A DNA stretch of 64,000 nt from a bacterium (GCA_965221165.1 CBDCRP010000002.1:832001-896000), one strand, 5' to 3'. Shown: positions 33,610 to 64,000, counted from the first letter of the stretch. Numbers and translations: made by a program. The notes: generated from the letters alone by a model not told the origin.

Positions 33610-33650
33610 TTCTGCTTCTCCTTTGCTCGCTCACCCGATATGGGCGGGTT

Positions 33651-33992: not shown

Positions 33993-34026
33993 GGCTTCTC
34001 CTTTGAATGCGCAAACGGCCCGCGAA

Positions 34027-36159: not shown

Positions 36160-36207
36160 GCCGGAGGCCGCCGCCTCGGCGAAAAAGCCGGCGGATGCGA
36201 CGGCGAC

Positions 36208-36259
36208 AATCTAGGGCAAGGGGTCGTAAACACGGGCAGCGCAAATGCGGGGAAATGCG
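36208..36259 (-). promoter_or_regulatory. Shared phage-module promoter element, copy 1 (head-tail operon)
   Basis: Plus strand AATCTA 36208-13, AAATGCG 36243-49 and 36253-59; 29-nt gap. Confidence 0.8.
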
Positions 36260-36469
36260 TATTAGACGTGTTTTTATGCGGAATTTTTATTTTTGCTAAT
36301 TGTAAATTTTAAGTAAATGCGGTAACATACGGAAAATTCTGGAGTTGCGGACGATGCGGGTGGTCCCGGCGTCTACCAATTCTGGATTCTTCGCCCGCCA
36401 CTCGGAAATTCCCGGATTCGCCGAGCGACAAAGACCGCCCCTAATACGACGTGGACGAGGGTGCATATC

Positions 36470-37765
36470 ATGTGGGGCGTCGCTCAACCGGCCTTGAATT
36501 TCATCCAGAACCTCTCCTGGAACCATGTGATCGACATCGGGATCATGTGGTTTCTGCTCTATCAGGTCTACATCCGCTTCAAGGGCACCCAGGCGATGCG
36601 CCTTCTCGTGCGCGTGTTCGCGGTATGGCTCATCTACCTCGCCTCCCAAGCCGCGGGCCTACACCTGACCTCATTCCTGCTTTGGGCCATCTGGATCGCC
36701 GTGCTCATCCTGTTTCTCATCAATTTCCACGGAGAAATCCAAAAGATATTCTTTCAACTCAACCCGGTGCGCAGAATCTCCACCCTGCTGCGCCGGGCGA
36801 TGCGCATCCGCCTGCCGGACGAGAGGGTCGCCACCATCGCCGAATCCGCATTCTCCCTCGCCTCCAAGAGTCTGGGCGCCATCATCGTCGTGGAACGCCG
36901 GGATTTGACCGAAGCGCTGCTGAGCAGCCCGGGCGAGGAGATTGAGGCGGATATCCGGCCGGCGCTGCTTGAAACCATTTTCTTCAAGGGAGCGCCCTAC
37001 CACGACGGCGCCGCCGTGGTCCGCGAGAACAAGGTCTCGCGCGTGGGCTGCCTTTTGCCTCTTTCCGAGAACCGCGCCCTGCCGCCGGAGTTCGGCACCC
37101 GCCACAGGGCGGCGGTGGGCATCACGGAGCGCTGCGACGCCCTGGCGATCGTCATATCCGAGGAGCGGGGGGAGATCACCTGCGTGGAAGGCAGCCATGT
37201 AAAGACGATAGAACATGAGGAGGAACTCGCCTCCTGGCTCACCACGCGCCTGCGCGCGGCCCGCGAAGCGGGGCAAACGAAAGGACGCATATCGCTCGCG
37301 CAGGTTTTCGAGAACTGGAAGCCCAAGCTCGCCGCCCTGGCCGCCGTCATCTTCCTTTGGTCGCTCGGCGGGCAGGAACGTCAAAATCCGCAGAATTTTT
37401 TCCCGCAACTCGAAAGCAAAGTGGAAGAGGAGTTCCGGGTTCCGCTCCATTATTACAACATTCCCAGTGGCGTCATCCTGCCGGACGATTTGGCGAAAAA
37501 CATCAAAATTCGCATCAGGGGCAGGCGCGACCTGCTGAACTACATCGACGCCACCCGCCTGCGCATGAATGTGAACCTTGCCAAAATGACGCCCGGAGCG
37601 CATTCGCGCACGTTCTCCGGACGCGATATCGACCTGCCGAGCGGCCTCGAATTCCTGAGCGCGGAGCCAAAAACCATCCAGTTGAACCTCGCCAAAGCGC
37701 CTAGACCTGAGAAAATGACGAAATCGAGCGCTTCCGCTGAAACAAAAGAATCCTCGAATTTCTAA
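36470..37765 (+). CDS. cdaA: Diadenylate cyclase CdaA fused to a YbbR (CdaR-like) domain
   Basis: Three N-terminal TMs, HDGA and GTRHRAA DAC motifs, ENWKPKLAAL TM then YbbR-like repeat. Confidence 0.88.
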   Translation: MWGVAQPALNFIQNLSWNHVIDIGIMWFLLYQVYIRFKGTQAMRLLVRVFAVWLIYLASQAAGLHLTSFLLWAIWIAVLILFLINFHGEIQKIFFQLNPVRRISTLLRRAMRIRLPDERVATIAESAFSLASKSLGAIIVVERRDLTEALLSSPGEEIEADIRPALLETIFFKGAPYHDGAAVVRENKVSRVGCLLPLSENRALPPEFGTRHRAAVGITERCDALAIVISEERGEITCVEGSHVKTIEHEEELASWLTTRLRAAREAGQTKGRISLAQVFENWKPKLAALAAVIFLWSLGGQERQNPQNFFPQLESKVEEEFRVPLHYYNIPSGVILPDDLAKNIKIRIRGRRDLLNYIDATRLRMNVNLAKMTPGAHSRTFSGRDIDLPSGLEFLSAEPKTIQLNLAKAPRPEKMTKSSASAETKESSNF

Positions 37766-38198
37766 GACCATTTTTTTCAGCCACTTAAATTTTCTGCATT
37801 TGAAAATTTGCTTTTTTCACTCAAAGAACCCATATTGAACCTACCGGATCATGGCCGCCGAAACGCTCAGATCGCTTTGATGAGCGGCATGGGCGAACCA
37901 TCTCAGATGGTGCTTGGCCTGGCCGAGTGAGGCGGGAAGGAGCCGACGCAGCAAGCGGTTCCGGTCCGGTTTAAGGGAGCCCTCAAAACAAAGGGGGATG
38001 CGATGATATCCACGATAAATCGCTTCAGCCGTGCGGAGACGCCATCCTCCCCGGCCCCATCGCATCAGCCGGGCGGGGAGGAAACCTCAAGGCTGATGCC
38101 TTTATAAAGGCGACAGAACGCCTTTTTGAGGTGAGATGAATTCTCACCCTGGAAAAAAGACAAAAGAGAGCGGGGCGCAATGTCCCGCTCTTCTTTTT

Positions 38199-38411
38199 TT
38201 ACGAACCTCCGGCGACCTGGTTCTTCGCGTCGAGTTTCCGCATCTCGATTTCCAGTTGCTGGAGTCTGTTCTTGATCATGTTGAAGTCGTACTCGAATCC
38301 CTCGGCGAGCAACATGAGACCCCGATACAACTGGTGTTTCTCCGGCTCTTCTTCCTCGCTCACCGAATCGAGCATTTCGACGAAAACCTCTCTCGCATGA
38401 TGAAAGCTCAA
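38199..38411 (-). CDS. Hypothetical 70-aa coiled-coil protein
   Basis: Helical heptad pattern, AGGGGG upstream of TTG. Confidence 0.55.
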   Translation of the reverse strand: MSFHHAREVFVEMLDSVSEEEEPEKHQLYRGLMLLAEGFEYDFNMIKNRLQQLEIEMRKLDAKNQVAGGS

Positions 38412-38552
38412 AACGCTTTCCCCCTTTTCGAATGAGAACGCACACTACGAAGCAATAAACCTTTTCGCGGGAAGAAATCCCCCCCCCCCGCATCCCTGCT
38501 AGAATCCATCGCATCGACAAATAAACCACAACGCTTTCAAGGAGTCATCTTC

Positions 38553-39047
38553 ATGCCGGAAAGACCGAACACGCCGCAAGTCATCCTGCGCCACATTCAG
38601 GGCACTCAGCTTCAGATGCTCACCACCACGGGAAAACACTCCTACGTGCTCGATGAACCCGAGACCCGGGGAGGCACGGACCTCGCCGCCACGCCGTTTG
38701 AGTTCTTCATCGCGGGCCACGCGGGCTGAGGCCTCTATACGCTGCTGGGAGCAGCGCAGGCCAAGGGCATCCACATCGAGGACGTGGAAGTCCACGCGGA
38801 GTTCAAGCGAAACATCTCACCAAAGTTTCACGCGGATTATCACGCAGACCCCGAGCGAAGAAAACTGGCCATCGGCGTCATTCGCACAAGTTATTATATT
38901 CACGGCGACGTAACAGAAGAGCAAAAGGCGGAACTTCTCGATGAACTCGCTAACTGCCCCATCCACAACACGTTGATGACGCCGCCCAGGCTCGAGGAGC
39001 GAATCGTCGTTTTAGGAGAAGACCAAACCACGCCTGAGAAAGTTTGA
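38553..39047 (+). CDS. OsmC-family selenoprotein (Sec at TGA 38727-38729)
   Basis: DEPETRGGTD..TPFE..AG-TGA at the OsmC catalytic Cys position; frame continues to CPIHNTL; AAGGAG SD; hairpin follows the TGA. Confidence 0.88.
38730..38762 (+). promoter_or_regulatory. Bacterial SECIS-like hairpin
   Basis: GGCCT-ctata-CGCTGCT-ggg-AGCAGCG-c-AGGCC directly 3' of the in-frame TGA. Confidence 0.75.
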
Positions 39048-39162
39048 TACCGGCAGGGAAGGAAGCCACTTTTCAATAATTAGAGCCTTGAACGCGATAG
39101 AAGCCACCTTCCAGGAAGTTTGATGCCGGCAGGGAGGGAGCACCTTCTTACAGAATCGGGAG

Positions 39163-39690
39163 CTAATAAGAAATTTTATTGTCCATCTGCTCCCATAATC
39201 TGAAAGACTCGAGCGCTTCATTCTCCAGAAACCGCGTTGATTCCAGCTTTCTTTCGTGGACCGGCAACGCAATTTCCTTGTAGAGAAATTCATCGGAAAA
39301 CCCGATCGCATCGGCCTCGACGATGGTGTTTCCATAAAACATGTGCTCGATTTTCGCCCAGTAAATGGCGCTCAGACACATCGGGCACGGCTCGCAACTC
39401 GTATATATCTCACACCCGGACAAATCGAAATTTTTCAGTTTCGCGCTGGCCGCCCGTATGGCGAGCATCTCGGCGTGAGCGGTGGGATCGCAAGAAGACG
39501 TCACCCGGTTCGTGCCCTCGCCGATGATCTCGCCGTCCTTGACGACGACGGACCCGAAAGGTCCGCCCAGTTTGTCCATCACATTTTGAGAAGCGAGCGA
39601 TATCGCCCTTCTCATGAAAGATTCCCGAGTCGTCATTTTCTTAATCTCCCGTGTGGCTCCACTATTCCGCCGTTGTTTTCTGTTCATCAC
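39163..39690 (-). CDS. guaD: Guanine/nucleoside deaminase (GuaD, cytidine-deaminase fold)
   Basis: GGPFG, DPTAHAE, SCEPCPMCLSAIYWA. Confidence 0.88.
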   Translation of the reverse strand: MMNRKQRRNSGATREIKKMTTRESFMRRAISLASQNVMDKLGGPFGSVVVKDGEIIGEGTNRVTSSCDPTAHAEMLAIRAASAKLKNFDLSGCEIYTSCEPCPMCLSAIYWAKIEHMFYGNTIVEADAIGFSDEFLYKEIALPVHERKLESTRFLENEALESFRLWEQMDNKISY

Positions 39691-39842
39691 GTATCAAGTA
39701 TTTCTCCAGATTCCCTTCATCTTAACTTGTTTTTGGAATGGTTTACATTTATTTTACAGGTTCTTCTTTTATAGTCTCCAAAACCGGGGTCTGGAACGAG
39801 AGAGATACAACTCCGCGAAATTCGCAACCCAAAAAGGGACAG

Positions 39843-40748
39843 ATGATGAAAATCGGATTTATCGGACTGGGAAACATGGGGGCGGGCATGGCGGCCAACC
39901 TCCAGAAAGCGGGCTATGAGCTCATCGTTCACGACATCGTCCGCGAGGCCGCGGCGGATCACATCGAGCGAGGCGCACTCTGGGCGGACACTCCCGAAGA
40001 AGTGGCCCGCGCGAGTGAGATCGTCTTCACCTCGCTGCCGGGTCCCAAGGAGGTGGAGAGCGTCGCCACGGGACCGAACGGCATTCTCGCAGGCGTCAGC
40101 GGGGGGAAAGTCTATGTAGACTTGAGCACGGTATATCCTTCCGTCGTCCGCCGCATCCACGAAAAGTTCACGGAAGCCGGCGCACATATGCTCGAAGCCC
40201 CCGTGAGCGGCTCCACCATAGGCGCGAACACGGGGCGTCTGGCCATCATGGCGGGAGGTGAGAAGGAGGTGTATGAGCGCTGCAAGCCCCTTCTCGACGC
40301 CATGGGAGACCGACCCTCCTATACCGGCCCTATCGGCACCGGCGCCGTGTGCAAGCTCGCCCACAATTGCCTGAGCTACGGCATTCAGGCCATCGCGGCG
40401 GAATGCTTTACCCTGGGCGTCAAGGCGGGGGCGGACCCCGCGGTATTGGCCGAAGTGATCCGAAACGGCGCGGTGGGCCGGGCCGTGCACTTCAACTTCG
40501 TCTTCTACGAGACATTCTTCAAGGGGAAATTCGACGAGCCCCATTTTCCCATCAAGGGCGCGGTAAAAGACGTAGGGCTCGCGCTCGAACTCGCCCGCGA
40601 ACACGACGTTCCCATGACGATAGGCAACATCGCCTACGGGGAACTCATTTCAGGTCTCAACCGCGGCTGGGGGGATGATGACGCGAGGCGCGCCATGACG
40701 CTCCAGGAAGAACGCGCGGGCGGCGTGCAGGTGAGAATTTCAGAATAG
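39843..40748 (+). CDS. NAD(P)-dependent beta-hydroxyacid dehydrogenase (3-hydroxyisobutyrate DH family)
   Basis: IGFIGLGNMG, EAPVSG, CKLAHN, KDV. Confidence 0.9.
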   Translation: MMKIGFIGLGNMGAGMAANLQKAGYELIVHDIVREAAADHIERGALWADTPEEVARASEIVFTSLPGPKEVESVATGPNGILAGVSGGKVYVDLSTVYPSVVRRIHEKFTEAGAHMLEAPVSGSTIGANTGRLAIMAGGEKEVYERCKPLLDAMGDRPSYTGPIGTGAVCKLAHNCLSYGIQAIAAECFTLGVKAGADPAVLAEVIRNGAVGRAVHFNFVFYETFFKGKFDEPHFPIKGAVKDVGLALELAREHDVPMTIGNIAYGELISGLNRGWGDDDARRAMTLQEERAGGVQVRISE

Positions 40749-40760
40749 AAGATAATACGC

Positions 40761-41765
40761 GTGAAACACGGAATCGCCATGCTGCCTCCTGCGCCGGAGA
40801 CCTACGCGCACTGGTGCCGACTCTCAGAAGAAGCGGGCTTCGACGTCATCTGGGTGCCGGATTCACAATCCCTCTACAGGGAGCTTTATGTTTCGTGCGC
40901 CATCTGCGCGGCGAACACCTCGCGCGTCCTGCTGGGACCAAACGTCACCAACCCGCTTACGCGGCATCCTGCAACGGCGGCGAGCGCCATCGCCACGGTG
41001 GATGAGTTCTCGGGCGGGCGCGCGCTGTTCGGGATCGCAACGGGCGACAGCGCCGTCCTGAATCTGGGCCTGCGCCCCGGACGCGTGGACGACATGCGCG
41101 ATTACGTGCTCGCCATGCGCGGAATGCTCGAAGAGGGCGCGGTGCACTACCGGGGAAAACCCTGCACGCTTAAATGGCGCAAAAAGCGCATCCCGCTCTA
41201 CGTCGCCGCCGAGGGGCCGCGCACCATCCGCCTTGCGGGCGAGATTGCCGACGGCGTCACCATCGGCACAGGTCTCACGCCGGAAGTGGTGGCGGATTCC
41301 CTCACCTGGCTCGAGGAGGGCGCGAGAAAATCGGGCCGCAAGGTGAACGATCTGGACGTCTGGTGGCTGGCGAAGGTGAACGTACGCGAAGACGGCGAGA
41401 CCGCGCGTGAGGAGATTCGCATGGCCCTTGCAGCGAGCGCGCACCATGCTTTTCGCTTCACGCTCGAGGGCAAACGAATCCCCAAGGAACTGCTTTCCGC
41501 CGTCGAAACCCTGAAAAAAGAATACGCATTCCACGAACACGAGATGGTGGACAAGCAGACGAACGCCGAACTCGTGGACAGGCTCGACCTTCGCGAGTAT
41601 CTACTCGATCGCTTCGCCATCGCGGGCTCGCCCGCCGAATGCAGGCAGAAGATCGAGGACATGAAAGCGACTGGTGTCGAGAACTTGAGAATCGCCGCCC
41701 ACGTGCACGACAAACCCGCCTTCATCCGGGCGTGGGGCCGTGAGATTATCAGCCAAATCAAGTAA
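40761..41765 (+). CDS. LLM-class Mer-like (likely F420-dependent) oxidoreductase
   Basis: WVPDSQ, VTNPLTRHP, GIATGDS, YVAAEGPRT..AGEIADG. Confidence 0.88.
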   Translation: MKHGIAMLPPAPETYAHWCRLSEEAGFDVIWVPDSQSLYRELYVSCAICAANTSRVLLGPNVTNPLTRHPATAASAIATVDEFSGGRALFGIATGDSAVLNLGLRPGRVDDMRDYVLAMRGMLEEGAVHYRGKPCTLKWRKKRIPLYVAAEGPRTIRLAGEIADGVTIGTGLTPEVVADSLTWLEEGARKSGRKVNDLDVWWLAKVNVREDGETAREEIRMALAASAHHAFRFTLEGKRIPKELLSAVETLKKEYAFHEHEMVDKQTNAELVDRLDLREYLLDRFAIAGSPAECRQKIEDMKATGVENLRIAAHVHDKPAFIRAWGREIISQIK

Positions 41766-41782
41766 CGAAAGAGGACATCTTC

Positions 41783-42784
41783 ATGAGACACGGCATTTCA
41801 TTCAGACCGCCCGACACGGATTCATTCGCCCATTGGTGTAAGTGCGCGGAAGAACTCGGCTTCGATGCGGTATTCATCCCCGATACCCAGTCCCTTTACC
41901 GGGAGGTCTACGTCTCGAGCGCGATATGCGCGATGGAGACGAGCGAGATCATCTTCGGCCCTTGCGTCACGAACCCCGTCACGAGGCACCCGGCGGTTGC
42001 CGCGAGCGCCATCGGCACCATCAGCGAGCTATCCGGCGGGCGCGCCTTCTGGGGTATCGCCACGGGCGACAGCGCGGTTTTGAACTTGGGTCTCAGGCCC
42101 GCGAAGCTCGCCGAGATGCGCGAATACATCCTCGCCGTGCGGGGCATGCTCGAAGAAGGAAGCGCCCGGTTCAAGGGTAAGAACACCCGGCTGAGCTGGC
42201 ACAAATCCCACGTGCCCATCCACATCGCCGCCGAAGGCCCCAAAACCTTAAGCCTGGCGGGCGAGGTGGCCGACGGCGTCATCATCGGAACCGGCCTCAT
42301 CCCCGAGGTCATCGCGGATACGCTCGGGTTCATCGACGAGGGCGCCAAGAAATCAGGCAAAAGGGTGGAAGATCTGGATCTCTGGTGGCTGGTGGACGCC
42401 CACGTGGACGCAGACGGCGAGCGCGCCCGCGAGGACATCCGCACCGCTCTCGCCGCGAGCGCGCATCACTCCTTCGCCTTCACGATGGAGAACAAGCGAA
42501 TCCCCAAGGAACTCGAATCCGCCATCCGCGCGCTGAGAGACGGCTACCAGACTTCGGAGCACGGCTTCATGGACAAGTCGAACAATGCAGGCCTAGTCGA
42601 TGAGTTCGGGCTGAGAGATTACCTCGCCGAGCGTTTCGCCATCGTCGGCACGCCTGAAGAATGCCAGAAGAGACTCCAGGACCTCGAAAACCTGGGCGTC
42701 AAGGGGCTTCGCATCAACAACAACCTGCCCGACAGAACCGTCTTCATGAACGCCTGGGCCAAGGAGGTGCGGGGGAGAGTTTGA
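41783..42784 (+). CDS. LLM-class Mer-like oxidoreductase, tandem paralog
   Basis: Same motifs as 40761-41765 (PDTQSLYRE, VTNPVTRHP, GIATGDSAVLNLG). Confidence 0.88.
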   Translation: MRHGISFRPPDTDSFAHWCKCAEELGFDAVFIPDTQSLYREVYVSSAICAMETSEIIFGPCVTNPVTRHPAVAASAIGTISELSGGRAFWGIATGDSAVLNLGLRPAKLAEMREYILAVRGMLEEGSARFKGKNTRLSWHKSHVPIHIAAEGPKTLSLAGEVADGVIIGTGLIPEVIADTLGFIDEGAKKSGKRVEDLDLWWLVDAHVDADGERAREDIRTALAASAHHSFAFTMENKRIPKELESAIRALRDGYQTSEHGFMDKSNNAGLVDEFGLRDYLAERFAIVGTPEECQKRLQDLENLGVKGLRINNNLPDRTVFMNAWAKEVRGRV

Positions 42785-42937
42785 GGAACCAAAATTCCAG
42801 GTGATCGAAGCGCCAAAGTCCTACTGGATGGATATTAACGGGAGATTTCCCTAAGGCCTTGCCTTCGGTTAGAATGGGGCAAATTCTAAAGACGGGTGAA
42901 TTCGACCTCCCCGTACAATCTCTTACTGGAGGATGAC

Positions 42938-43492
42938 ATGAACGAAATGACGAAGGAAAAGGAGAAAATTCTCGTCTACGAACCCGTGGCGGAGGCTCCG
43001 GGCGCGAGCGCCGTCATGGCCGAGCGGCCCGAGAGCTTAAACGGCAAGAGCGTCGGTCTCATCAACAACACCAAGGATTTCACCGATGAGATTTTCGATG
43101 TGATGGGCGCCGCGCTTGAAAAACAGTTCCCCGGCGTGCGCGTCGTGCGCTACCGGAAAGAATCCGTGAGCGGCGCATCGCCCGCCCTCATGGAGCAGGT
43201 GGAAGGAGAGTGCGACGCCGTCGTATCCGCACTCGGCGACTGAGGCTCGTGCACGTCGTGGAGTATCCACGACAGCGTTGCTCTCGAGAAAAGAGGGCTG
43301 GCCACGGTCACCATCGTCACCGACGCATTCGAGAATTACGCGAAGCAGCTCACCAAGCTGCACAAGATGAACGAGCTTCCCCTCGTCGCACTTCCCCATC
43401 CCATTGCGGGCAGAAAGCGCGAGGAGGTGGATGAGATGTCGGCGAGAGCGAGCGAATTTCTGGCGCACGCCCTCACACAGGCGAGCGGCTGA
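42938..43492 (+). CDS. UGSC-family selenoprotein (Sec at TGA 43241-43243)
   Basis: ALGD-TGA-GSCTSWSIHD..LEKRG continues in frame to TGA 43490; GGAGG SD. Confidence 0.9.
43255..43273 (+). promoter_or_regulatory. Bacterial SECIS-like hairpin
   Basis: GTCGTGGA-gta-TCCACGAC starting 11 nt after the TGA. Confidence 0.7.
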
Positions 43493-43499
43493 TATCGGC

Positions 43500-44600
43500 A
43501 TGAGTTCGCCACAGCCTGCCCGCCAGATAGCGCTCGATGAAGACCCAGGCGCGATATTCGAGCACTTCTACGAAGAAGGCTGGACGGACGGGCTGCCCAT
43601 CATCCCACCGACGGAAGAGCGCGTCGCTGAGACCTTACGCTTCACGGACTATGCGCCGCATGACGTCATCGCCAACGTTCCGCCGAGAAACGCGCCCGCC
43701 ACGTTGGAGAACATCGCCATAAACGCCGTGATGGCGGGCTGCAGACCGGAGTATCTGCCCGTGCTCATCGCCGCAGTAGGGGCCATGACGGAACCCGCCT
43801 ACAACCTCTACGGCCGCCAGACGACCACCCACCCCGGCGCGCACCTGATGATAGTCCACGGGCCGGTACGAAACGAACTGGAAGTCAACTGCCGCCAGAA
43901 CGCCTTCGGCCAGGGCCGACGCGCGAACGCGACGCTCGGGCGCGCGGTGAGGCTCCTGATGATGAACGCCGGCGGCGGCATCCCCGGCGTGACGGACATG
44001 GCCACCCACGGGCATCCGGGAAAATACTCCTACACCATCGGTGAGGACGAGGAGGGAAGCCCCTGGCAGCCATTTCATGTCGACAGGGGTTTCTCGCCCG
44101 ATACTTCCGCCGTCACCATGCTCTGCGCCGAGTCGCCCCACAACGTGAACGATCTGGTGAGCAAGACGACCCATAAGTATCTCGGCACCGCGGCTTCGGC
44201 CATGAGTCACTTAGGCGCCAACGGCGTCTACCGGAGCGGGCTGCCGAGCGAGCAGATGCTGGTGCTGACCGCCGAGGCGGCGACGTGGCTGTCGGATCAG
44301 GGGTGGACGAAGGCCGACGTATCCCAGTTCATCTACGAAACGGCGCGCCAGCCGATTCGCCTCATGCGCGACCGCGGCGGCTTCGACATGACGCCGCTCG
44401 CTCCTTTCGTGAACCTCGATGAGGATGAGGACATGGCCCCCATCGTCCCGAGACCCGAAGACATCCTCATCGTGGTCGCAGGCGGCCACGGCCGCCACAT
44501 GCAGGCCGTCCTCACGGCGAGCTACAACCTGAGCGTCACCAAGCCCATCACCAGAAAAGACGGAACGCCGGTTGGGTCGGTAAGGGAGTTTGTGGAGTAG
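43500..44600 (+). CDS. UGSC-associated conserved protein
   Basis: GWTDGLPIIPPT, IAINAVMAGCRPEY, RANATLGRA, GHPGKY motifs recalled from UGSC partner proteins. Confidence 0.8.
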   Translation: MSSPQPARQIALDEDPGAIFEHFYEEGWTDGLPIIPPTEERVAETLRFTDYAPHDVIANVPPRNAPATLENIAINAVMAGCRPEYLPVLIAAVGAMTEPAYNLYGRQTTTHPGAHLMIVHGPVRNELEVNCRQNAFGQGRRANATLGRAVRLLMMNAGGGIPGVTDMATHGHPGKYSYTIGEDEEGSPWQPFHVDRGFSPDTSAVTMLCAESPHNVNDLVSKTTHKYLGTAASAMSHLGANGVYRSGLPSEQMLVLTAEAATWLSDQGWTKADVSQFIYETARQPIRLMRDRGGFDMTPLAPFVNLDEDEDMAPIVPRPEDILIVVAGGHGRHMQAVLTASYNLSVTKPITRKDGTPVGSVREFVE

Positions 44601-44611
44601 AGCGCACCCCC

Positions 44612-45988
44612 CTACCTCTCGAGGTTCATGCCGAACTGGCCCGCGATGTGGGTGATGAGCTTGCCTGCGGCATCGTCGCTCATCCAGCCGCGCGTGGTGG
44701 CCGTCTCAAGCGCCGTGCTCACGCGCAAAAGGGCCTGGGATATCTTCTCGGTATCGCGCACGGATATCTCCGGCAGAACGGGCGAGACGCCCGAGCGCAG
44801 CGCCTCTTCAGACAATGCGCCCGCACGGTGGGCTTCTTCGAGTTGTTTGTCGGCTATGGCTTGCAGAATGTGGCGCACGGTGCGCTGGCACCGCGTCATC
44901 TTCTTGAGCGTGGGCTGATCCATCGACTCGGCCGAGGCGCGGTTCACGTCCTCCCCCTGGGCGAACCAGTGGGAAGGGATGCCCACGCCGCCCAGGAGAA
45001 GCCCCCGCATCATCTTGGCGATTCCCTGAGCGCCGGTTTCTCCGCCTTTCAAGTCGGGCGAGACGGCCTGCCACTCCTCCTTCTCGTTATGCACGCGCAC
45101 GCTCGAGGGCTTGGGCGCGACGCCGTTCTCAGACAGCCACTCGGCTATCTTCTCGGGGCCTGCGCCCTTTAAGGTGACGTCGTAGATGAAGCTGTTCTGC
45201 AGACGCGCGCGCTCCACGGCGTCGAAGATGAAGCGCTCATAGGTGTCTATCCAGTCGATGGCGGCGAGCAAATCAGAAGCCCCCCGCGCCGCGTCACTCG
45301 CCTTGTTGATCTGGAACAAGAACGCCTCCCCGTCCGTGAAGCGCGCGCGCTCCTTCTGGGCGGATGCGCTCAGATAACCGCGCGGGTCGCCCCCCAGAAC
45401 CGTTTTGATTCTCTTGCCCTTGCGCGCCGCTCCGCTTGGGCCTTGGGCGCGCAGGACGACCCCGATGGGCAGGGCGCAGTTGTCCGGGTCCATCACCACC
45501 TCTTCTATCAGGCGGGGGCTGACGTAGCCCAGGCGAACACGCCCCTCGAAGCGCGAGACGGCGACCGGCAGAATGAGTTCCCCGAAAATGCCGAGTTCCG
45601 AGACCAGCCGCTCGAAGCGGATGTCCATCTGGTTCACGGGGTCGCTCCAGAACGCCTCTACCGCGCGCAGGGCGCGCTCGTCCTCCGCATACCAGCTCAC
45701 CCCCTCGCCCACGACGTGATCCGTCACGATTTCGATCAGGCGCTGGCCCATGAGGTTCGTGAGCCACAACTCGTGCGCCAAGGCCTGCATGCGCGCGTGG
45801 GTGTGGGGAGCGACCCCGCTCCGCCCCTCGCCCAGGGGCCGCCAGATTCTCTCATCCGGGTCAATCTCCGCGCTCATTCGCCCGGAACGCTGCGCGGCCG
45901 CTTTTACTCGCGCCGCAACGTCCCCTTTTCTCTTGAGTCCCGTCCTCCGACCGGGAGCCTTCACGCTCTTTGCTTTCTCCATTCTCAT
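44612..45988 (-). CDS. Phage portal protein
   Basis: 458 aa directly after the terminase; IFGELILPV, RGASDL, RVHNEKEEW, GVGIPSHWF..DVNRASA. Confidence 0.82.
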   Translation of the reverse strand: MRMEKAKSVKAPGRRTGLKRKGDVAARVKAAAQRSGRMSAEIDPDERIWRPLGEGRSGVAPHTHARMQALAHELWLTNLMGQRLIEIVTDHVVGEGVSWYAEDERALRAVEAFWSDPVNQMDIRFERLVSELGIFGELILPVAVSRFEGRVRLGYVSPRLIEEVVMDPDNCALPIGVVLRAQGPSGAARKGKRIKTVLGGDPRGYLSASAQKERARFTDGEAFLFQINKASDAARGASDLLAAIDWIDTYERFIFDAVERARLQNSFIYDVTLKGAGPEKIAEWLSENGVAPKPSSVRVHNEKEEWQAVSPDLKGGETGAQGIAKMMRGLLLGGVGIPSHWFAQGEDVNRASAESMDQPTLKKMTRCQRTVRHILQAIADKQLEEAHRAGALSEEALRSGVSPVLPEISVRDTEKISQALLRVSTALETATTRGWMSDDAAGKLITHIAGQFGMNLER

Positions 45989-46632
45989 CTCCTCCTGAGC
46001 ATCCGCTGATCCAAAGTCTGCGGAACCACCGTTCCCCCGGCGAGGGGGGCCAGCATTCCCTCGCTCTGCGCCAGGGATTCGGCCAGCCGCGCATAGGCGC
46101 AGGCGAACCCGAAGTGGTTCTCGTTTCGCTCATACGCCAGCACCGTCTCCCCGGAGGAGCGGATGCGCGGCTTTTTCCTCAAATTCATCAGATGACGCTC
46201 CACCTCGCTCAAAAGCGCCTCCTCCCCGGTATCCTTAGGACCCGGCAGCAAGACCCGCCCGGCTCCCTCGTGAAACTCCTCCACCAGGTGATCGAGAAGG
46301 TCCTCGCGGTTCATCCGCACGTGGCGGCGCTCCACCCCCAGGAACGAGACCCCCTTGGTCTGCATCTCCCCTTCGGTATGCCGCCAGATGAAGCCGCCAT
46401 CGGGATTCAGGTCGTACACCGCGCGCGCGGCCTGGGTGTGGGGTCCGCCGTCGACCACGAACGCCTCGACGCCCAGACTCGAGAATATCACGCAGCACCG
46501 CTCGCTGAGCCGCTCGACCGGCGGGGCTTCAAAATAAATCCACCGGACGGGCCGGCCTCCCTCGCCCTCGCGCACCGCAACCGCGCAAACATCGCCCGTG
46601 TCGATTCCGCAGAAGCGATGGGGCGCGCTCAT
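45985..46632 (-). CDS. Terminase large subunit, C-terminal nuclease part
   Basis: RNase-H-like FCGIDTG, VVDGGP, NHFGFA; own GGAGG SD and ATG overlapping the upstream TGA. Confidence 0.78.
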   Translation of the reverse strand: MSAPHRFCGIDTGDVCAVAVREGEGGRPVRWIYFEAPPVERLSERCCVIFSSLGVEAFVVDGGPHTQAARAVYDLNPDGGFIWRHTEGEMQTKGVSFLGVERRHVRMNREDLLDHLVEEFHEGAGRVLLPGPKDTGEEALLSEVERHLMNLRKKPRIRSSGETVLAYERNENHFGFACAYARLAESLAQSEGMLAPLAGGTVVPQTLDQRMLRRR

Positions 46633-47687
46633 GCGGGCGCCTCCACCAAACGATAGGGTGCGGCATCGCGCAGAATTCTGAGCAGTTCCCTGGAAATCGG
46701 CTGGACGTCCCCCGCATCCGGGGTGGCGAGCGTCGAGCAGCGAAACCGCGCCTTCTCGCTCGGAAGCGTGGCGGCGGCCCATTTCGCCGCGATGCGATCG
46801 AGACGCACCGCGCCGATTGCGAGCTGGGAGAGGCGGTAGCTCCTGTTCCGCCGACCCGCCCGCGCGGCCTCCCACCGTCCGGCTCCCCGGTCGAGCGCGC
46901 CGCCGCAGGCCGGACACGCGAGGCCGCCTGCACACAGGATTCGCGGCCAGTTCTCCTCTAATACGCTCTCCGCACGACACTTTGGACAAGTCACATGCCA
47001 GCGCCTCTGGTCGCCCGCCTCGTACATGGCGTGAATGCCCGCGCCCGGGCTTCGTCCCACGGCGAGGTTCAGCGTCAGGGCGAGCGGTGAGGCGTCGATG
47101 CGGTCGTTCGACCATTTGAGATTATCCGGCGGGAGGTCGTCCACCTCGTCGCGGACAAGGACGTCGAGCGGGATAGATATGGCGTTGCCCACGTCTCTAA
47201 GGCCCAGTATGTACAAAAAACGCGAACCCCCGGAGCAGGGGAACTCCTTGAGTCCCTTGGGCGATGCGCCCTTGTATTTCCCGTCGCGCATGATCGAAGC
47301 GATTTTTTCGTTCCGAAGCGCCGGGCGCACCCGCGTCTGATCGAAGCGGTCGGCGAAATCCTGATCGGGCAAAAAATAGCCCACGTTCAGGCGGTGGACG
47401 ATGACGCCGTACAGCGCGAGGCCAATCGCGAGGGTGGTCATGCCCACCTGCGCGCCCTTCAAGACGCTGATGGTCTGATCGGGCGTGCGTTTTTCGAGAA
47501 TATCGTCGAGCGCGGCGGTGGGCTCCAGGAGCGCTTCACGGCCCTTAAACGCGAACGAGCCGGTATCGGTCCTTATCTCGCTCGTCAGAAACCGAGCCAG
47601 CCCGCGCGCCTCGCCCGAGAAGCGGGACGCCCCGCCGGCAACCAAAGTGATGCCGGGCGTTCGGATGATTTTTCGGGAACTGCGCAA
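46629..47687 (-). CDS. Terminase large subunit (GpA-like), N-terminal ATPase part
   Basis: Walker A KGAQVGMT, YFLP, Walker B DEVD, DQRRWHVTCPKC..CPAC zinc ribbon. Confidence 0.88.
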   Translation of the reverse strand: MRSSRKIIRTPGITLVAGGASRFSGEARGLARFLTSEIRTDTGSFAFKGREALLEPTAALDDILEKRTPDQTISVLKGAQVGMTTLAIGLALYGVIVHRLNVGYFLPDQDFADRFDQTRVRPALRNEKIASIMRDGKYKGASPKGLKEFPCSGGSRFLYILGLRDVGNAISIPLDVLVRDEVDDLPPDNLKWSNDRIDASPLALTLNLAVGRSPGAGIHAMYEAGDQRRWHVTCPKCRAESVLEENWPRILCAGGLACPACGGALDRGAGRWEAARAGRRNRSYRLSQLAIGAVRLDRIAAKWAAATLPSEKARFRCSTLATPDAGDVQPISRELLRILRDAAPYRLVEAPA

Positions 47688-47738
47688 AGCCTGTATTCCT
47701 CCATACCGAGGATGCCGCGCGCATCCTCACGGGGGAGG

Positions 47739-47790
47739 AATATAGGGGAGCAAAGCGGGGAACCATGACACGCAAATGCGGGGAAATGCG
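47739..47790 (-). promoter_or_regulatory. Shared phage-module promoter element, copy 2 (terminase-portal)
   Basis: Plus strand AATATA 47739-44, AAATGCG 47774-80 and 47784-90; 29-nt gap. Confidence 0.8.
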
Positions 47791-47818
47791 CGCTCGGACG
47801 CGCCGGGGGCGCGCGCCT

Positions 47819-48052
47819 CTAATCACGCATGTTCTCGAACTGGAGCGCGAGCCTTAAGTTCAGCCCCCGGCAGAGGGACATCACCTGCTGTAAGTCGTCT
47901 CGCTTCTTGCCGCTCACTCTCAGCTGATCCCCTTGAACCGCGACCTGAACCTTCATTTTCGCCGCCTTCACCTTCTTGACGATCTCGCGCGCCGAATCCT
48001 GATCCACCCCTTGTTTCACGAGGAGGGTTTGTCTGAGCGCGCCGCCCGAGGC
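47819..48052 (-). pseudogene. yajQ: 3' half of yajQ (c-di-GMP/nucleotide-binding protein)
   Basis: ASGG..RQ..KQG..KVQVAVQGDQLRVSGKKRDDLQ..LQFENMRD; N-terminal half absent. Confidence 0.8.
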
Positions 48053-48283
48053 GTATTCGTCGCCAAGGGATTCGGCGGCGTTGGCTTTGCCGAGGGCGTC
48101 GGCATGGGCGGACAGGTCTGGATCCAGACCGTGAGCGTCGTCGCCACGCTCGTCTATTCGGGCGTCGTCTCCTTCCTCATCCTGAAAATAGTGGACGCCA
48201 TGGTGGGCTTGAGAGCCGACGCCAACGAGGAATCGGGCGGTCTCGACCTCATGATGCACAACGAATCGGCCTACGAACGCTAG
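48050..48283 (+). pseudogene. amtB: 3' end of ammonium transporter
   Basis: GVF..GGVG..QVWIQ..ILKIVDAMVGLR..EESGGLDLMMHNESAY is the Amt C-terminus; the rest is absent. Confidence 0.8.
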
Positions 48284-48292
48284 GCCGTACAG

Positions 48293-48345
48293 AAAAAGAC
48301 CCCGGGGCGCGTCCCCGGGGTTGCACGTTCCCGTGAACGTGCAAC
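48293..48345 (-). terminator. Tandem hairpins/terminator between the amtB fragment and the cyclase
   Basis: ACCCCGGGG/CCCCGGGGT (48299-48321) with a T-tract on the minus strand, and GTTGCACGTTC/GAACGTGCAAC (48320-48345). Confidence 0.6.
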
Positions 48346-48441
48346 TTCCCCGAGAAGGGGAGGCGCGAAAAACCCTCTACGGAATTCCGATTGAAAAGAT
48401 GATTCCCGGCGGCGGCCAGAAGCCGCAACGGACGCCTCGGT

Positions 48442-50289: not shown

Positions 50290-50435
50290 CCTTACGCCTC
50301 CGGGGCGGCTCCAGAGGCCAGTATACACCACCGGAACGGTAGGAAAAGCCGAAAGCGAGGAGGATAGCCACCCCTTGAAACGGGCGGCGGGGCGGGCACT
50401 TCTCTACACACAAGAACGCCGCAGGGAGGCCCGTC

Positions 50436-51446: not shown

Positions 51447-51473
51447 GGTTTCTCTCCCCCGCAGGCGCGCCCC

Positions 51474-53066: not shown

Positions 53067-53161
53067 GGACGAGTTCTTTCCGTCGGGTCAGTGGAGCGAC
53101 GTAAGCGGCCGCCGCGTTCGCTTTGCCTGAGCGCGCAAATCCACCGGCCCCGCCCGCGCCG

Positions 53162-54367: not shown

Positions 54368-54447
54368 GTCGTCCCCCCGGCGAGTGGACGCGCGAGGAGA
54401 CGGGGAATCAAAACCCCGCCTCCGCCGCGCGGCGTCGCGCGTGATTC

Positions 54448-55404: not shown

Positions 55405-55558
55405 AGACTTTCCTCCCCGGTTAGATCTATGGACCAGTGTGCAATCGTATTCTCTGAAATGTATTGATGGGAAAATCATCACACACAGGCTTCGGCCCGT
55501 CAAGAAAGGAGACCGGCGGCGGGCGTGAGTGGACAACCCGCCGCCGGTGGAAAACTCC

Positions 55559-57304: not shown

Positions 57305-57336
57305 CGCACACCTCACGTCTTTTATGAGAAATTTAC

Positions 57337-59082: not shown

Positions 59083-59580
59083 GTCTCGCCTTTCTGAAAA
59101 AAGGTTGGAATCACCGTCGGTGACATATTTAGGGATGGGAGGAATATAACCGAGGGGATGGGGCTAGTCCAGGTATGGAGGGGTGATTCAGCGAGAGCTT
59201 TTATGCCGGAGAATACGCTCTACGACTCTTACCTATTGGCAAAATCGCGCAGATGGGAATGTTGTGGCCAAGTAGATTGCTAAAGACATTTACAACTAAA
59301 TCACACCAATTTAAGAACAATTCCATAAACTGATTAATGCCCAACACAACATTTTGTAGATAAATGAGTTATTTTTGATTTTTATCCACAAAATGTGGTA
59401 TATTTTGAAACTTACTAGCCTTTGGAATGGGGCACCAAAGGATAGTAAGTTTAACGACAGACGAACTAACTGAAAACGTGAAGCAACATAAGATGTGGAT
59501 AAAGATTGAGTGCCTCCGATCTTCACCATCGAAGGCACTCATGCTGATGTGTTGCCGGGAGCATCAGCAACCGGGGGCAG

Positions 59581-59772
59581 ATGGACAGGCCATTTCGCTT
59601 CTATTATCTGTCAACCCCGGCAATAGGAGGAAGGGATATAACCCCTTCCAAAGGCTCTGAAGATTACATTGTGATCTTCAGAAAATCTATTACCCTTCCG
59701 AATGGGAGAGTCATTCATGCCAGCGATTATGGCAAGGTGGCTTTCCCCATTCGAATTAAAAAGAAAGGGTAG
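59581..59772 (+). CDS. Small basic protein (IFRKSITLPNGRVIHASDYGKVAFPI type)
   Basis: AGGAGG at 59625-30 precedes in-frame ATA 59638; followed by a perfect hairpin; start uncertain. Confidence 0.5.
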   Translation: MDRPFRFYYLSTPAIGGRDITPSKGSEDYIVIFRKSITLPNGRVIHASDYGKVAFPIRIKKKG

Positions 59773-59781
59773 TAGATGAGT

Positions 59782-59813
59782 GGGCATCGGGGAGTGGACA
59801 CTCCCCGATGCCC
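59782..59813. terminator. Perfect 15-bp hairpin between convergent small ORFs
   Basis: GGGCATCGGGGAGTG-ga-CACTCCCCGATGCCC. Confidence 0.7.
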
Positions 59814-59816
59814 TAC

Positions 59817-59939
59817 TTATTTCGGAGCAATTTTTTTATCCGCCGCCTTGAACACGGCCTTAGCGATTTGCTGAGCCGTAGCAGGTATCCGTTCTATAAC
59901 GTTTTTTACTGGCCTGCCTGGTGGTTTAGCATTACTCAT
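59817..59939 (-). CDS. 40-aa basic peptide, copy A (not in ORF track)
   Basis: MSNAKPPGRPVKNVIERIPATAQQIAKAVFKAADKKIAPK; paralog at 60811-60933. Confidence 0.6.
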   Translation of the reverse strand: MSNAKPPGRPVKNVIERIPATAQQIAKAVFKAADKKIAPK

Positions 59940-60179
59940 GAGACACCCCCACGTCGAATACCTTTTTTAGATATCCAATGTTCCTTTTATTGTAATTTTT
60001 TGAGGCGGATAGTTACATACGATGCAACGTGTTGCAAATGTAACCGAAATGAAATTTTTGTCAACAATATTTTCACGACTTTTCCACGCCTTATCCACAA
60101 GGCAATGGGTAACTTTCCGCCTAATTAAGTATATAATCCCCCAAATTTTTTTCAGTCGTACGCGGCCACTCGAAGCCAT

Positions 60180-60644
60180 TCAGGCGGCGACGGCTCTTGG
60201 CTCATCCAGCATATTGTGTTGGGCTGTGGGTTTCTTCACCGTCCTTACTTGCACATAGGGCCGATGCTCGTCTGCGTTTTTCTTTTCCATTCCTTCGGCT
60301 TCAATATCCCCTCGGCGCACTGCTTCGACGGCTTCAGCCCATTCTTGTTTCGTCTCTTCGCAGATTTCGTTGAAGAATGTCTCCACTCGCTGTTTGAACA
60401 TCGAGAAATCGTCGGCTTCCTCAGCCATGTCGAACAGGACGGACGTGTAGGTCCGCCGGAACGTGGAGAATGCCTCATCCTCGTTCTGTCCGGTCGCGGC
60501 GATTCCACCCGGCTGTATTCCGTACATCCATGTGGAATCATCCTCTTTCATCCCGAGGAGCGTTCCCATCATTTTCACATTCGCCACGAAGCCGTTTCCT
60601 TCCACCTTGTCCGAGAAGGTAAAAAAGAACGGAAACGCGCTCAT
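60180..60644 (-). CDS. Hypothetical protein with HicB-like segment
   Basis: AAGGAG SD; QPGGIAATGQNEDEAF resembles the HicB partial RNase-H fold motif. Confidence 0.6.
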   Translation of the reverse strand: MSAFPFFFTFSDKVEGNGFVANVKMMGTLLGMKEDDSTWMYGIQPGGIAATGQNEDEAFSTFRRTYTSVLFDMAEEADDFSMFKQRVETFFNEICEETKQEWAEAVEAVRRGDIEAEGMEKKNADEHRPYVQVRTVKKPTAQHNMLDEPRAVAA

Positions 60645-60810
60645 GTCACTCTCCTTTTCGGTTTTTGAAAAACCTTATCTCCAGATAGACTAATCCATCT
60701 GTCTTATCCGTGTTTCAAATTCGTTATGATTGTTCCATTATTTGCCCTGAAGAACTTTTCTGTCAAGGAAGGTAATTTCAGGCGACAACGGGTCCAACCC
60801 TAAAAACTCC

Positions 60811-60933
60811 CTATTTTAATACAAGAATCTTCGTATTCGCCGCTCGATAGATGGCTTTAGCAATTTCTTGTGGCGACGCCGGGGCCGGTTGCACAACGTT
60901 CTTCACCGGACACCCCGGTGATTTGGTACTCAT
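60811..60933 (-). CDS. 40-aa basic peptide, copy B (not in ORF track)
   Basis: MSTKSPGCPVKNVVQPAPASPQEIAKAIYRAANTKILVLK. Confidence 0.5.
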   Translation of the reverse strand: MSTKSPGCPVKNVVQPAPASPQEIAKAIYRAANTKILVLK

Positions 60934-61111
60934 TAGATGCCCCTTTGCCAAGCGAATGAATTCGACCGCCGTCTCACACAGCGCACCCTATTACATAACT
61001 TGTAGCACTTTGCAACTTTTCAGCACACTTTTTTCGCATTTTATCAACACAACCAAAGTTATATATTATTCCCTTTTTTACCAATCCTCCGGAATTTTCC
61101 GCCCCCCCCCA

Positions 61112-61683
61112 TCACTCGATGCGCTCCTCGAGCTTGCGCGTCGCCTCGGCGGTGAGTTCGCATATCTTCTCCATCACCTCGGGATGATCGCGGAGCGATT
61201 CGCGCACCTCGTTGACAATCGCCATCTTGGCGGCGGCGAACCCGTCCTCGTACTGAAGCCTGAGACGCTCGGCCGATATGCGGCTGTTCTCGAGCGTGTT
61301 CACCATCTTCGCGATTTTTTCGGGGGTCAAGCCCTCGAAGGATTTCCGTTCCATGTGCGAGACGGCCTCGACCGCCTGCGCCATCAGCATCCGCCGCGCG
61401 GCGGCGGCCACCTTCTCGCCCGGGTCCCTGCCCTCACCGTCGTAGGCCATGACTTCTTCGATCAGCTCATCCACCATGGCTTCGACCTGCTTACTCTTGC
61501 GGATGCCCTCGAGCAGGCGCCGTTGTGCCTGAATACGGAAGATATCTGCAGCGGCTCCCCGGTGGCGTTCTCGAAGGCCCGCGCCACTTCCTTGTAGGTC
61601 TTCCCCTCGGCGAGCATGGGATCGACGAACTTCTCCGCGTCGTATCGCTCGATTTTCGCACGGCGTCCCCGTCTTCTCTCCAT
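61112..61683 (-). pseudogene. DUF3486 / Mu gp27-like small terminase, frameshifted near 61524
   Basis: N-terminus GRRAKIERY..TYKEVA..ISSVFRH in one frame and helical C-terminus RRLLEGIRK..SAERLR in another; ATG 61683 overlaps the gp26-like stop. Confidence 0.72.
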
Positions 61684-62015
61684 CACAACTCTCCCACGAG
61701 GATGTCGGGCGACCCCGATACGGCTCCCTCGAGCAGGCCCCGCCCCCGGCGGGTGAGGTGGACCTCGTAGTCGGTGAGCAGGCGGCCGAAACCGCCCGGG
61801 GTGCGCTTTTCCACCAAGCCCCGCTCCGCCAGATCGTCCACGAAGGCCTCGAGCGTCTCCCGGCCGATGGGCGCGCCGTCCTCGTGGTGGCCCGCCTCGC
61901 GCAGCGCGCTCCACAGAAGAAGGCTGCCGACGCTCGATTTCTCCTGAAAGGCATCCTGGTAATAAAGCGTCTTCAATATGTCGCCGCGCAGAACGCGGGC
62001 CGCCAACTCGTTCAC
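61683..62015 (-). CDS. Mu gp26-like winged-helix protein
   Basis: LRGDILKTL..LAERGLV..LTRRGRGLLEG..PDI; AGGAGG SD; lies just before DUF3486 as in Mu-like phages. Confidence 0.72.
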   Translation of the reverse strand: MNELAARVLRGDILKTLYYQDAFQEKSSVGSLLLWSALREAGHHEDGAPIGRETLEAFVDDLAERGLVEKRTPGGFGRLLTDYEVHLTRRGRGLLEGAVSGSPDILVGEL

Positions 62016-62152
62016 GCCAAAACACCTCCTGGATAACTTTGACCCTCAAACGCCGGACGCGGCACGCCTGGATTCGGCGTCTCTCGCGGATGATGAAATA
62101 CGCCCCGGGCGTCTCGGCACGCCCCTCCCCCGCGCGCGGCGGGGATTCGGGC

Positions 62153-62204
62153 AATATAGGGTGCGGCGCAGGTTCCGGCGGCCCCGTAAATGCGGGCAAA
62201 TGCG
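62153..62204 (-). promoter_or_regulatory. Shared phage-module promoter element, copy 3 (gp26-terS)
   Basis: Plus strand AATATA 62153-58, AAATGCG 62188-94 and 62198-204; 29-nt gap. Confidence 0.8.
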
Positions 62205-63556: not shown

Positions 63557-63774
63557 GGCTTCTCCTCATTCATCAGCGAATCCTCGCCGTCATTTGCCTC
63601 TCTCATCAGACGCCGCAGCGACGCCGCTCCCTTGTGAGCGCCCACGCGGCCCGCGTAGGCCTGGCTCGAGGCCAGGATGCGTCCGTTTTTCGCCCTGACG
63701 CGGAAACGATGCCGCCCGGATTCGTCCTCGAAAATCTCGATGGGACGCCGTCCCGATCTTTTCACGGCGCGCAT
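63538..63774 (-). CDS. YegP/DUF1508 family protein
   Basis: EIFEDESGRHRFRVRAKNGRILASSQAY. Confidence 0.78.
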   Translation of the reverse strand: MRAVKRSGRRPIEIFEDESGRHRFRVRAKNGRILASSQAYAGRVGAHKGAASLRRLMREANDGEDSLMNEEKPCSRTN

Positions 63775-63911: not shown

Positions 63912-64000
63912 GATTTTCCTCTCTCTTCAGGGGGAATCCCGCGCGCCGCCCTTAGGCTGCGCGCCTCGACCCGGGAGATCCTAGGCCTTGATGACACCGG

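Follow-up and report, generated by a model that had tools for sequence, protein, structure and literature searches.

The stretch of DNA described here, a window of 64,000 nucleotides (C2:832001-896000), comes from a bacterial assembly (G000; 3.69 Mb in 3 contigs, 59% G+C, 96% complete) and carries phage-derived genes set among host genes. Ahead of three groups of these genes lies the same predicted promoter module, a tandem pair of heptads, CGCATTT-N3-CGCATTT (CGCATTTNNNCGCATTT), followed at a fixed distance by a -10-like hexamer. Where relatives are cited below as G041 to G044, these are G022, G014, G019 and G006 of our genus set and are not additional evidence. The elements of the three modules are as follows, with coordinates counted from the first letter of the window:

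36243-36259, minus strand: tandem heptads CGCATTT-CCC-CGCATTT of the predicted capsid-unit promoter (exact pattern match; also in relatives)
36208-36213, minus strand: -10-like TAGATT, 29 nt after the heptads, within the block CTAGATTGTC.CCGT.GC of the alignment of relatives
47774-47790, minus strand: tandem heptads of the predicted terminase-portal promoter (exact in G041, G042 and G044; two mismatches in G043)
47739-47744, minus strand: -10-like TATATT, 29 nt after the heptads and followed by a leader hairpin (CCTATATTCC conserved)
62188-62204, minus strand: tandem heptads of the predicted third-unit promoter (exact in G041 and G042)
62153-62158, minus strand: -10-like TATATT, 29 nt after the heptads (motif scan)

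The heptad motif matches the window exactly at these three places, always on the minus strand, against an expectation of 0.00 and a maximum of 0 in 100 dinucleotide-preserving shuffles of the window. The first-pass annotation, which had drawn attention to the three copies, placed them correctly (plus-strand coordinates 36208-36259, 47739-47790 and 62153-62204), and the 29 nt that it gave from the heptads to a TA[T/G]ATT box is exact at all three sites, on the coding strand of the phage-derived units. The 29-nt spacers themselves are dissimilar in sequence, so the three copies are not duplicated blocks and what recurs is a conserved motif, as had been argued. The three nucleotides between the heptads are constrained, being nearly always CCC, GCC, CCG, GCG or TCC in G000 and its relatives, which makes the unit in effect a 10-bp tandem repeat. 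All three copies are co-oriented with the downstream phage genes and lie 83-172 nt 5' of the first called open reading frame (ORF). A scan of 29800-48400 for sigma-70 consensus promoters, which covers sites 1 and 2, called no -35/-10 pair at either. If transcription begins 7 nt after the -10 box, the heptads would occupy about -58 to -42.

Two further classes of signal were considered. A sigma-54 or extracytoplasmic-function (ECF) promoter was rejected by eye, as the promoters have no conserved GG/GC or spacer element in common. A search of Rfam with the window, 18 motif loci and 5 further loci gave two tRNAs, one in the window and the other at one of the loci, and a cspA element, none of them downstream of the motifs.

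The genes that follow the three sites are these:

34027-36159, minus strand: prohead protease-major capsid fusion, 710 amino acids (aa) (Phage_capsid_4, 8e-46; PHROG 29592, 133 and 4523)
33651-34079, 32899-33609 and 31845-32534, minus strand: three conserved genes with no assigned function (syntenic in relatives)
30633-31772, minus strand: tail tube gene (Phage_tube_2, 4.5e-11; phrog_290, 2e-20; syntenic in relatives)
30166-30558 and 29979-30302, minus strand: two ORFs that follow the tube gene and overlap in different frames (G/GT tail-chaperone-like by position only)
46629-47687, minus strand: large terminase, ATPase part, 352 aa (GpA_ATPase, 9e-18; phrog_675, 9e-52)
45985-46632, minus strand: large terminase, nuclease part, 215 aa (start codon overlapping the ATPase stop codon as ATGA)
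44612-45988, minus strand: portal gene (phrog_10963, 1.3e-45)
61683-62015, minus strand: winged-helix protein, 110 aa, first gene of unit 3 (predicted fold, homologues)
61112-61540, minus strand: Mu Gp27-like gene, possible small terminase (Pfam Phage_Mu_Gp27, below cut-off)

Site 1 thus precedes a capsid operon and site 2 the terminase and portal genes, both as first proposed, on the strength of the profile matches just listed. The capsid fusion gene probably starts at a TTG near 36105, and its product is 59-93% identical across 26 related loci. The 29979-30302 ORF is kept in relatives, and a terminator-like hairpin stands at 30614-30629, between the tube gene and the chaperone-like pair. Genes connected with cyclic nucleotides stand next to the promoters. 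At unit 1 this is a diadenylate cyclase (DAC) gene, which points away from the capsid promoter; the intergenic region between the two (36260-36460) contains a strongly conserved block.

In unit 2 the large terminase is made up of two ORFs (45985-47687) joined by the ATGA stop-start overlap at 46629-46632. An RTGA overlap is kept in four relatives, so the split is conserved and is not a recent frameshift. Right after the -10 box, the terminase leader contains a GC-rich hairpin (47690-47735) whose arms vary in concert among four genomes. The leaders of other units likewise have a GC-rich hairpin after the -10 box, which makes control after initiation conceivable. A DUF520/YajQ-like gene (47819-48259) ends 29 nt before the terminase heptads, with a HAMP-nucleotide cyclase gene (48442-50331) just upstream of it.

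The third unit had been labelled gp26-terS. This label is weak: the first gene encodes the 110-aa winged-helix protein, and the Phage_Mu_Gp27 match of the second is sub-threshold (E 6e-4, 20.6 bits against a Pfam cut-off of 28). The C-terminal half of the Gp27-like gene is kept as a separate frame in relatives. Scans with NCBIfam and with permissive Pfam settings of the small proteins of this unit and of the fourth unit described below gave nothing usable beyond the Gp27 match. On the 3' side of unit 3 there is a stretch of low G+C (about 0.53-0.55) at 59100-61100; it holds a 154-aa ORF (60180-60644) that was found in one relative only, among those examined, and is therefore probably a recent insertion outside the conserved unit.

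It had been predicted that further copies of the motif would mark the missing tail, tape-measure and lysis loci. Two one-mismatch copies bear this out in part, as they mark a lysis unit with a holin and a weakly assigned tail/tape-measure-like cluster. The first of them, CGCAGTT-GCC-CGCATTT, lies just past the window end, at window coordinates 64013-64029 (C2 896013), and its unit runs back into the window:

63978-63983, minus strand: -10-like TAGGAT of the predicted fourth promoter (29-nt spacing conserved in G041-G044)
63538-63867, minus strand: DUF1508 gene of the fourth unit (DUF1508, 4e-9)
62721-63146, minus strand: holin with three transmembrane segments, fourth unit (GTA_holin_3TM, 2e-12; phrog_3427, 3e-23)

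The second copy, at C3 1159111, has a TATATT 28 nt further on, ahead of a run of seven co-directional genes. Pfam gave no match for any of the seven. The last of them (563 aa) has tape-measure PHROG matches (5e-7), two other proteins of the cluster resemble viral clusters that include TipJ/Phage-tail_3 (scores 0.95-0.97), and sequence searches of the PDB with three tail-cluster proteins returned no match. The tape-measure-like gene, which usually comes next after a G/GT pair, thus sits on another contig here. A TAnnnT -10 at a fixed spacing of 28-29 nt is common to the five promoters and to relatives, which is what would be expected of activator-dependent sigma-70 promoters that lack a -35 element. 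Beside the holin unit, just past the window end (C2 897366-899053), a gene for an N6/N4 DNA methylase and one for a SmaI-like endonuclease overlap, and the two probably form a type II restriction-modification pair.

The particle genes do not look like the debris of a phage. Host genes lie between the units (diadenylate cyclase, cytidine deaminase, dehydrogenases, luciferase-like oxygenases, an ABC transporter, peptidases and a nucleotide cyclase), and unit 1 sits between the same host genes in the same-genus loci with enough flanking DNA. In comparisons with five relatives, the ratio of nonsynonymous to synonymous substitution rates (dN/dS) is 0.11-0.20 for the capsid gene, 0.13-0.28 for the tube gene and 0.15-0.28 for a unit-1 gene of no assigned function; for the flanking DAC gene it is 0.14-0.33 in four of the five, with a dS similar to that of the particle genes (0.37-1.8 overall). 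Conserved synteny, dN/dS of 0.11-0.28 and a dS like that of a host gene argue together for vertical inheritance under selection, not decay, and bear out the earlier remark that the arrangement would be hard to explain by random prophage decay. The chromosome carries head, packaging, tail and lysis genes (capsid-protease, portal, split large terminase, tube and holin, with a weakly assigned tail cluster), in a conserved context and under purifying selection, as would be expected of a gene transfer agent (GTA). The sequence evidence points to a domesticated, GTA-like element.

One might still see in these genes an ordinary decaying or mobile prophage, with a motif inherited from its late promoters and devoid of any function at the level of the host. 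The gene content is that of a typical tailed phage, with head, packaging, tail and lysis functions, and other families of the class have capsid genes related to this one, at 42-43% identity. We consider this highly improbable, however, given the shared host flanks and the rates just described. The tail cluster lies on another contig, or at least 265 kb away in relatives, the 31 ORFs scanned with Pfam in 30-64 kb include no integrase, repressor or replication gene (the rest of the genome was not searched), and the nearest deposited phage capsid is 32% identical.

How far the promoter module is shared can be judged from the capsid homologues, which comprise 26 loci in records of metagenome-assembled genomes (MAGs) labelled Nitrospinota, Tectomicrobia or plain 'bacterium'. 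Upstream of the capsid gene, 15 loci have exact heptads, 2 have them with a single mismatch, 3 carry a variant and 6 show none, though 4 of these last have less than 200 nt of upstream DNA. When 17 of the capsid-upstream regions are aligned, two near-invariant islands stand out, the heptad pair and CTAGATTGTC.CCGT.GC; between them the spacer drifts in sequence and keeps its length. The islands persist even though dS is 0.37-1.2. The terminase, holin and tail promoters of G041-G044 likewise have heptads with 0-2 mismatches at the 28-29 nt spacing. One of these genomes, G019/G043, has one exact copy of the motif genome-wide and yet carries heptads with one or two mismatches before its capsid, terminase, holin and tail units; since the heptads are kept in a genome almost free of the repeat family described below, the phage-unit promoters are independent of that family.

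A coordinated variant is found in G045, a more divergent relative whose capsid is 71% identical (L090-L092, C1:3100001-3160000). All the units lie within about 40 kb there, and the tail cluster adjoins unit 1. The sequence CGAAWTT-CCC-CGAATTT stands at the 29-nt spacing before the tail unit, the capsid unit and two extra small genes, while the terminase and unit-3 genes have a degenerate CGAAAAT or CGAAACT, then GCG, then CGAATTT, and the portal gene has the proximal half-site only. All of these half-sites are followed by a -35-like element of the CCGGTAGTTGGC type, CCGG(T/C)(A/G/C/T)GTTGG(C/G). The portal gene is about 11 kb from the terminase in this genome, and a low-G+C insertion between them cut the distal heptad of the portal promoter. 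The picture is one of the same ancestral prophage split at different places in different lineages. At two other distant loci, CGAA-type half-sites stand 29 nt away from a TAGATT or TACATT; L041, which by its coordinates is G024, belongs to another genus of the same family. That the same base is changed at every G045 unit examined suggests a co-evolving trans factor; this coordinated C-to-A change is what chiefly leads us to propose a specific binding protein rather than RNA polymerase alone.

Outside the particle genes the motif is far from rare. The genome of G000 holds 21 exact copies, and 44 at up to one mismatch. Arrays of 10-bp-phased A-tracts, (C/G)TGAAAAnnn in five or six units, are dispersed through the same genome, where nhmmer iterations seeded from one copy, followed by a classification script, found 57 of them. 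Twelve of the 21 exact motif copies lie 78-89 nt upstream of such an array and four lie 173-183 nt downstream of an array start; the others are the three window promoters and two that we could not classify. The 23 one-mismatch copies divide into 12 that are array-linked, the 2 at the holin and tail promoters and 9 others. With 16 of 21 exact copies in a composite repeat, the motif is not private to phage genes, and the notion of a private phage regulon has to be given up on the very terms of the first-pass annotation, which had named a motif frequent genome-wide before unrelated genes as a ground for refutation. Neighbours of the composite repeats include the housekeeping genes mnmA, pyruvate dehydrogenase E1, a cyclase and seryl-tRNA synthetase, among others, and many of the repeats lie between convergent genes (gene calls outside the standard ORF lists came from a crude caller based on G+C at third codon positions).

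The composite repeat reads, in order, as sub-repeats like GGTCGGGaTTGAcc, the heptad pair, a TATGNN box (27-29 nt on in most of the copies read) and the A-tract array, for example at C3 1001607-1001790 and C2 423120-423330. A longer form has in addition a promoter-like TTCATA-N17-TAAAGT pair and a second heptad pair. At the orthologous site upstream of the cyclase gene the repeat is present in G000 and in G041, the latter with another array unit, partial in G042 and absent from G043 and G045. The TGAAAA array is specific to G000 (82 overlapping matches, versus 0-3 in 15 other genomes of the genus). As the array unit is species-specific and the heptad pair constant across species, the array part evolves fast within individual genomes, whereas the heptad module is retained. 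The marks of a dispersed repeat are borne by the 16 array-linked exact copies, namely many, mostly intergenic copies that vary in presence at orthologous sites; the particle-gene copies are positionally conserved.

These repeats raise the question of whether the heptads are primarily a part of the composite element, as a transposition or recombination site or as a site for a nucleoid protein or silencer, with the phage-unit copies as remnants or domesticated ends devoid of any activating role. The fixed distances of 16 of the 21 exact copies from A-tract arrays fit such a role, and so does the gain and loss of repeats at orthologous sites; the repeats are also met close to the ends of contigs where an assembly is fragmented. 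The phage-unit copies, however, have no array nearby, since all 57 arrays lie outside the window. Those copies are also conserved in position within the genus, persist as variants in divergent relatives and in the almost repeat-free genome, and are held in a fixed phase to the conserved -10 block and to gene orientation; in addition, a site ending 29 nt upstream of the -10 would be unusual for a repressor. We find this explanation quite improbable.

The distribution of the motif among genomes bears on a second alternative. Of the 22 other genomes of the genus, 20 have the exact motif, 18 of them with 21-65 copies and two with a single copy, and two have none; it is absent from the 18 genomes examined outside the genus, and a reversed control pattern gave no match anywhere. 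The capsid gene is likewise present in 20 of the 22, and 18 genomes carry both it and the motif family. The two without a capsid gene, G008 (99% complete) and G009 (95%), contain 0 and 1 copies of the motif. This co-occurrence is in keeping with a connection between element and repeat family and, coming from two related genomes, is a lead only. The motif-poor genomes were checked for an expansion of the CGAATTT variant, and none was seen.

The main rival explanation is that the heptads are a generic host promoter module, either like an UP element or a site for a global regulator, used throughout the genus and merely borrowed by the domesticated genes as the usual strong or regulated promoter of the host, with no dedicated particle regulon. 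The count of copies speaks for it, since only 3 of the 21 exact and 2 of the 23 one-mismatch copies precede particle genes while 18 of the 22 genomes hold 21-65 copies. UP elements are A/T-rich tracts at -40 to -60 with low sequence specificity, and the heptads, at -58 to -42 with two ATTT tracts 10 bp apart, occupy what we take to be the location of a subsite for the C-terminal domain of the RNA polymerase alpha subunit. Furthermore, two near-identical GntR-led operons bear a one-mismatch heptad pair (C2 3658-3674 and C3 106770-106786) that abuts the -35 of a canonical TTGACT-N17-TAGAAT promoter, 4 nt upstream of it and 27 nt from the -10. Set against this, the CGC flanking each A/T tract is as conserved as the tract itself, and the C-to-A change is coordinated at every unit examined in one lineage. 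Absence of the motif from 18 genomes outside the genus would be odd for a feature of the core RNA polymerase, and the two capsid-less genomes are nearly devoid of it. On this evidence we judge a purely generic module unlikely. It should be noted that the two copies before the duplicated GntR operons had been considered as rRNA promoters, an idea that was dropped.

We lean instead, with moderate confidence and from sequence, towards the reading that the sites are upstream activating elements of promoters without a -35, which would drive the scattered units of a vertically inherited, GTA-like gene set. The 7-bp direct repeats, in 10-bp phase at about -58 to -42, would be read together with a TAnnnT -10 box placed 28-29 nt downstream, at five such promoters or more: those of the capsid-tube, terminase-portal, winged-helix-Gp27-like and DUF1508-holin units and of the tail/tape-measure-like cluster. 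A putative sequence-specific factor bound to the heptads would recruit RNA polymerase, and the dispersed units would fire together; the 110-aa winged-helix protein is one candidate for that factor. The same heptad/-10 module also forms part of the dispersed composite repeat, which accounts for the bulk of the copies in the genome and in most of the genus. Promoter activity, the position of the start site, activation rather than repression, and particle production are what we infer from this arrangement, and the single activator first proposed for the dispersed modules would be a prediction of the same kind.

Several points weigh against this reading of the sites. The relatives are kin, and counts of conservation among them overstate their independence. 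The 16 exact copies that lie in composite repeats next to unrelated genes would be accounted for just as well by a general function of the host. The unit-3 promoter is unmatched in G043 and G044 at up to two mismatches, the tail and tape-measure assignments come from weak profile matches and feature similarity, and the winged-helix candidate could be merely a DNA-recognition subunit of the terminase. The first-pass annotation had likened the sites to promoters of the Mu C/Mor type; in phage Mu (Mor/C) and P2 (Ogr), promoters with a poor -35 are activated from a site just upstream, and the lack of a called -35 element at the two scanned sites agrees with this. However, Mor/C sites are dyad-symmetric and overlap the -35, whereas here direct repeats end 29 nt upstream of the -10, and the Mor/C family (Pfam PF08765) has no match in G000, at 96% completeness, whereas control genomes gave one.

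The winged-helix protein merits a closer look. It is 74-93% identical in relatives and has 31 homologues in a large protein collection, unnamed or 'hypothetical' wherever named, one of them in a MAG labelled Nitrospinota. Its AlphaFold2 model (predicted local distance difference test score, pLDDT, 92) is a winged helix-turn-helix whose nearest structures are TubR, MarR, PadR and SSV1 F-93 (Foldseek E 4e-4 to 2e-2, TM-score 0.5-0.7). From this model the protein could be the reader of the heptads, or else a small-terminase partner or a DNA-recognition partner of the terminase. A comparison of its residues with the half-site variants brings out an EAF/ERF difference that is confounded by phylogeny and is no more than a lead; in distant relatives the gene is not promoter-proximal.

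A bolder reading, which we offer as a possible though doubtful one, is that this is an independently domesticated GTA-like system in genomes labelled Nitrospinota or Tectomicrobia, wired by a dedicated heptad-reading factor, possibly the element's own 110-aa winged-helix protein, and that a mobile composite repeat spread the module to dozens of places among the host genes. It agrees with this that 18 genomes carry both the capsid gene and the motif family and that the two capsid-less ones have 0-1 copies. If this were true, a genus-specific network of additional responsive promoters would either be reprogrammed when particles are induced or buffer that induction.

Parts of this arrangement have parallels in known systems. 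In Pseudomonas aeruginosa, the P-box is repeated upstream of dispersed phage-tail-derived and bacteriocin genes of the pyocins and is bound by the activator PrtN. The likeness lies in a repeated upstream box at dispersed phage-derived genes, but the sequence and repeat structure of the P-box differ and pyocins have no heads or packaging genes. The Correia elements of Neisseria are dispersed intergenic repeats bearing promoter-like modules. They resemble the composite repeat as short intergenic sequences with promoter-like or protein-binding modules that stand beside unrelated genes and turn over between species. The composite repeat differs from them in its sub-repeats, its heptad pair with a -10 and its A-tract array, with no terminal inverted repeats or target duplications established.

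The concept of several phage-derived loci under one activator matches known GTA regulons. The Rhodobacter capsulatus GTA (RcGTA) has a head-tail cluster and separate head-spike, tail-fibre and lysis loci, which are reported to be co-activated at their promoters by GafA, together with CtrA (PMC9638019; PMC6363796). Our system shares with RcGTA a domesticated phage, dispersed loci and a holin of the GTA_holin_3TM type, and would share with it a dedicated activator. It differs in belonging to another lineage (Nitrospinota/Tectomicrobia labels) and in having a protease-capsid fusion, a split terminase and structural genes that are unrelated in detail. Moreover, its head and packaging genes are split among host genes, and its 10-bp-phased heptad pair is amplified on dispersed repeats. 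For the GTAs of Caulobacter (GafYZ) and Bartonella (BaGTA), phage-derived loci are reported to be integrated under one transcription programme (PMC11150451; bioRxiv 10.1101/2024.11.20.624540). Control there relies on antitermination over long operons, whereas in our system the promoter module is repeated at every unit. A limited set of publications searched for a GTA in Nitrospinota or Tectomicrobia yielded nothing relevant; the heptad text came up in primer lists only, and we found no published description of the heptad element in that set. The unusual part is a module common to domesticated phage genes and a repeat family.

In summary, the genes described here would add a GTA-like, phage-derived system, at the level of its genes, outside the few lineages in which such systems have been characterised. 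The cis-element is precisely defined and precedes five units, one DNA-binding protein is a candidate for its reader, and nature provides variants in the form of the CGAATTT-type genomes and the almost repeat-free genome; with these parts the wiring of an uncultured host becomes testable in vitro. There is also a caution of a general kind, in that conservation of a motif before phage genes needs a genome-wide check before a private regulon is claimed. Finally, this genus illustrates how one module can be common to a domesticated virus, as a regulatory site, and to a family of dispersed repeats, which bears on how new regulons arise.

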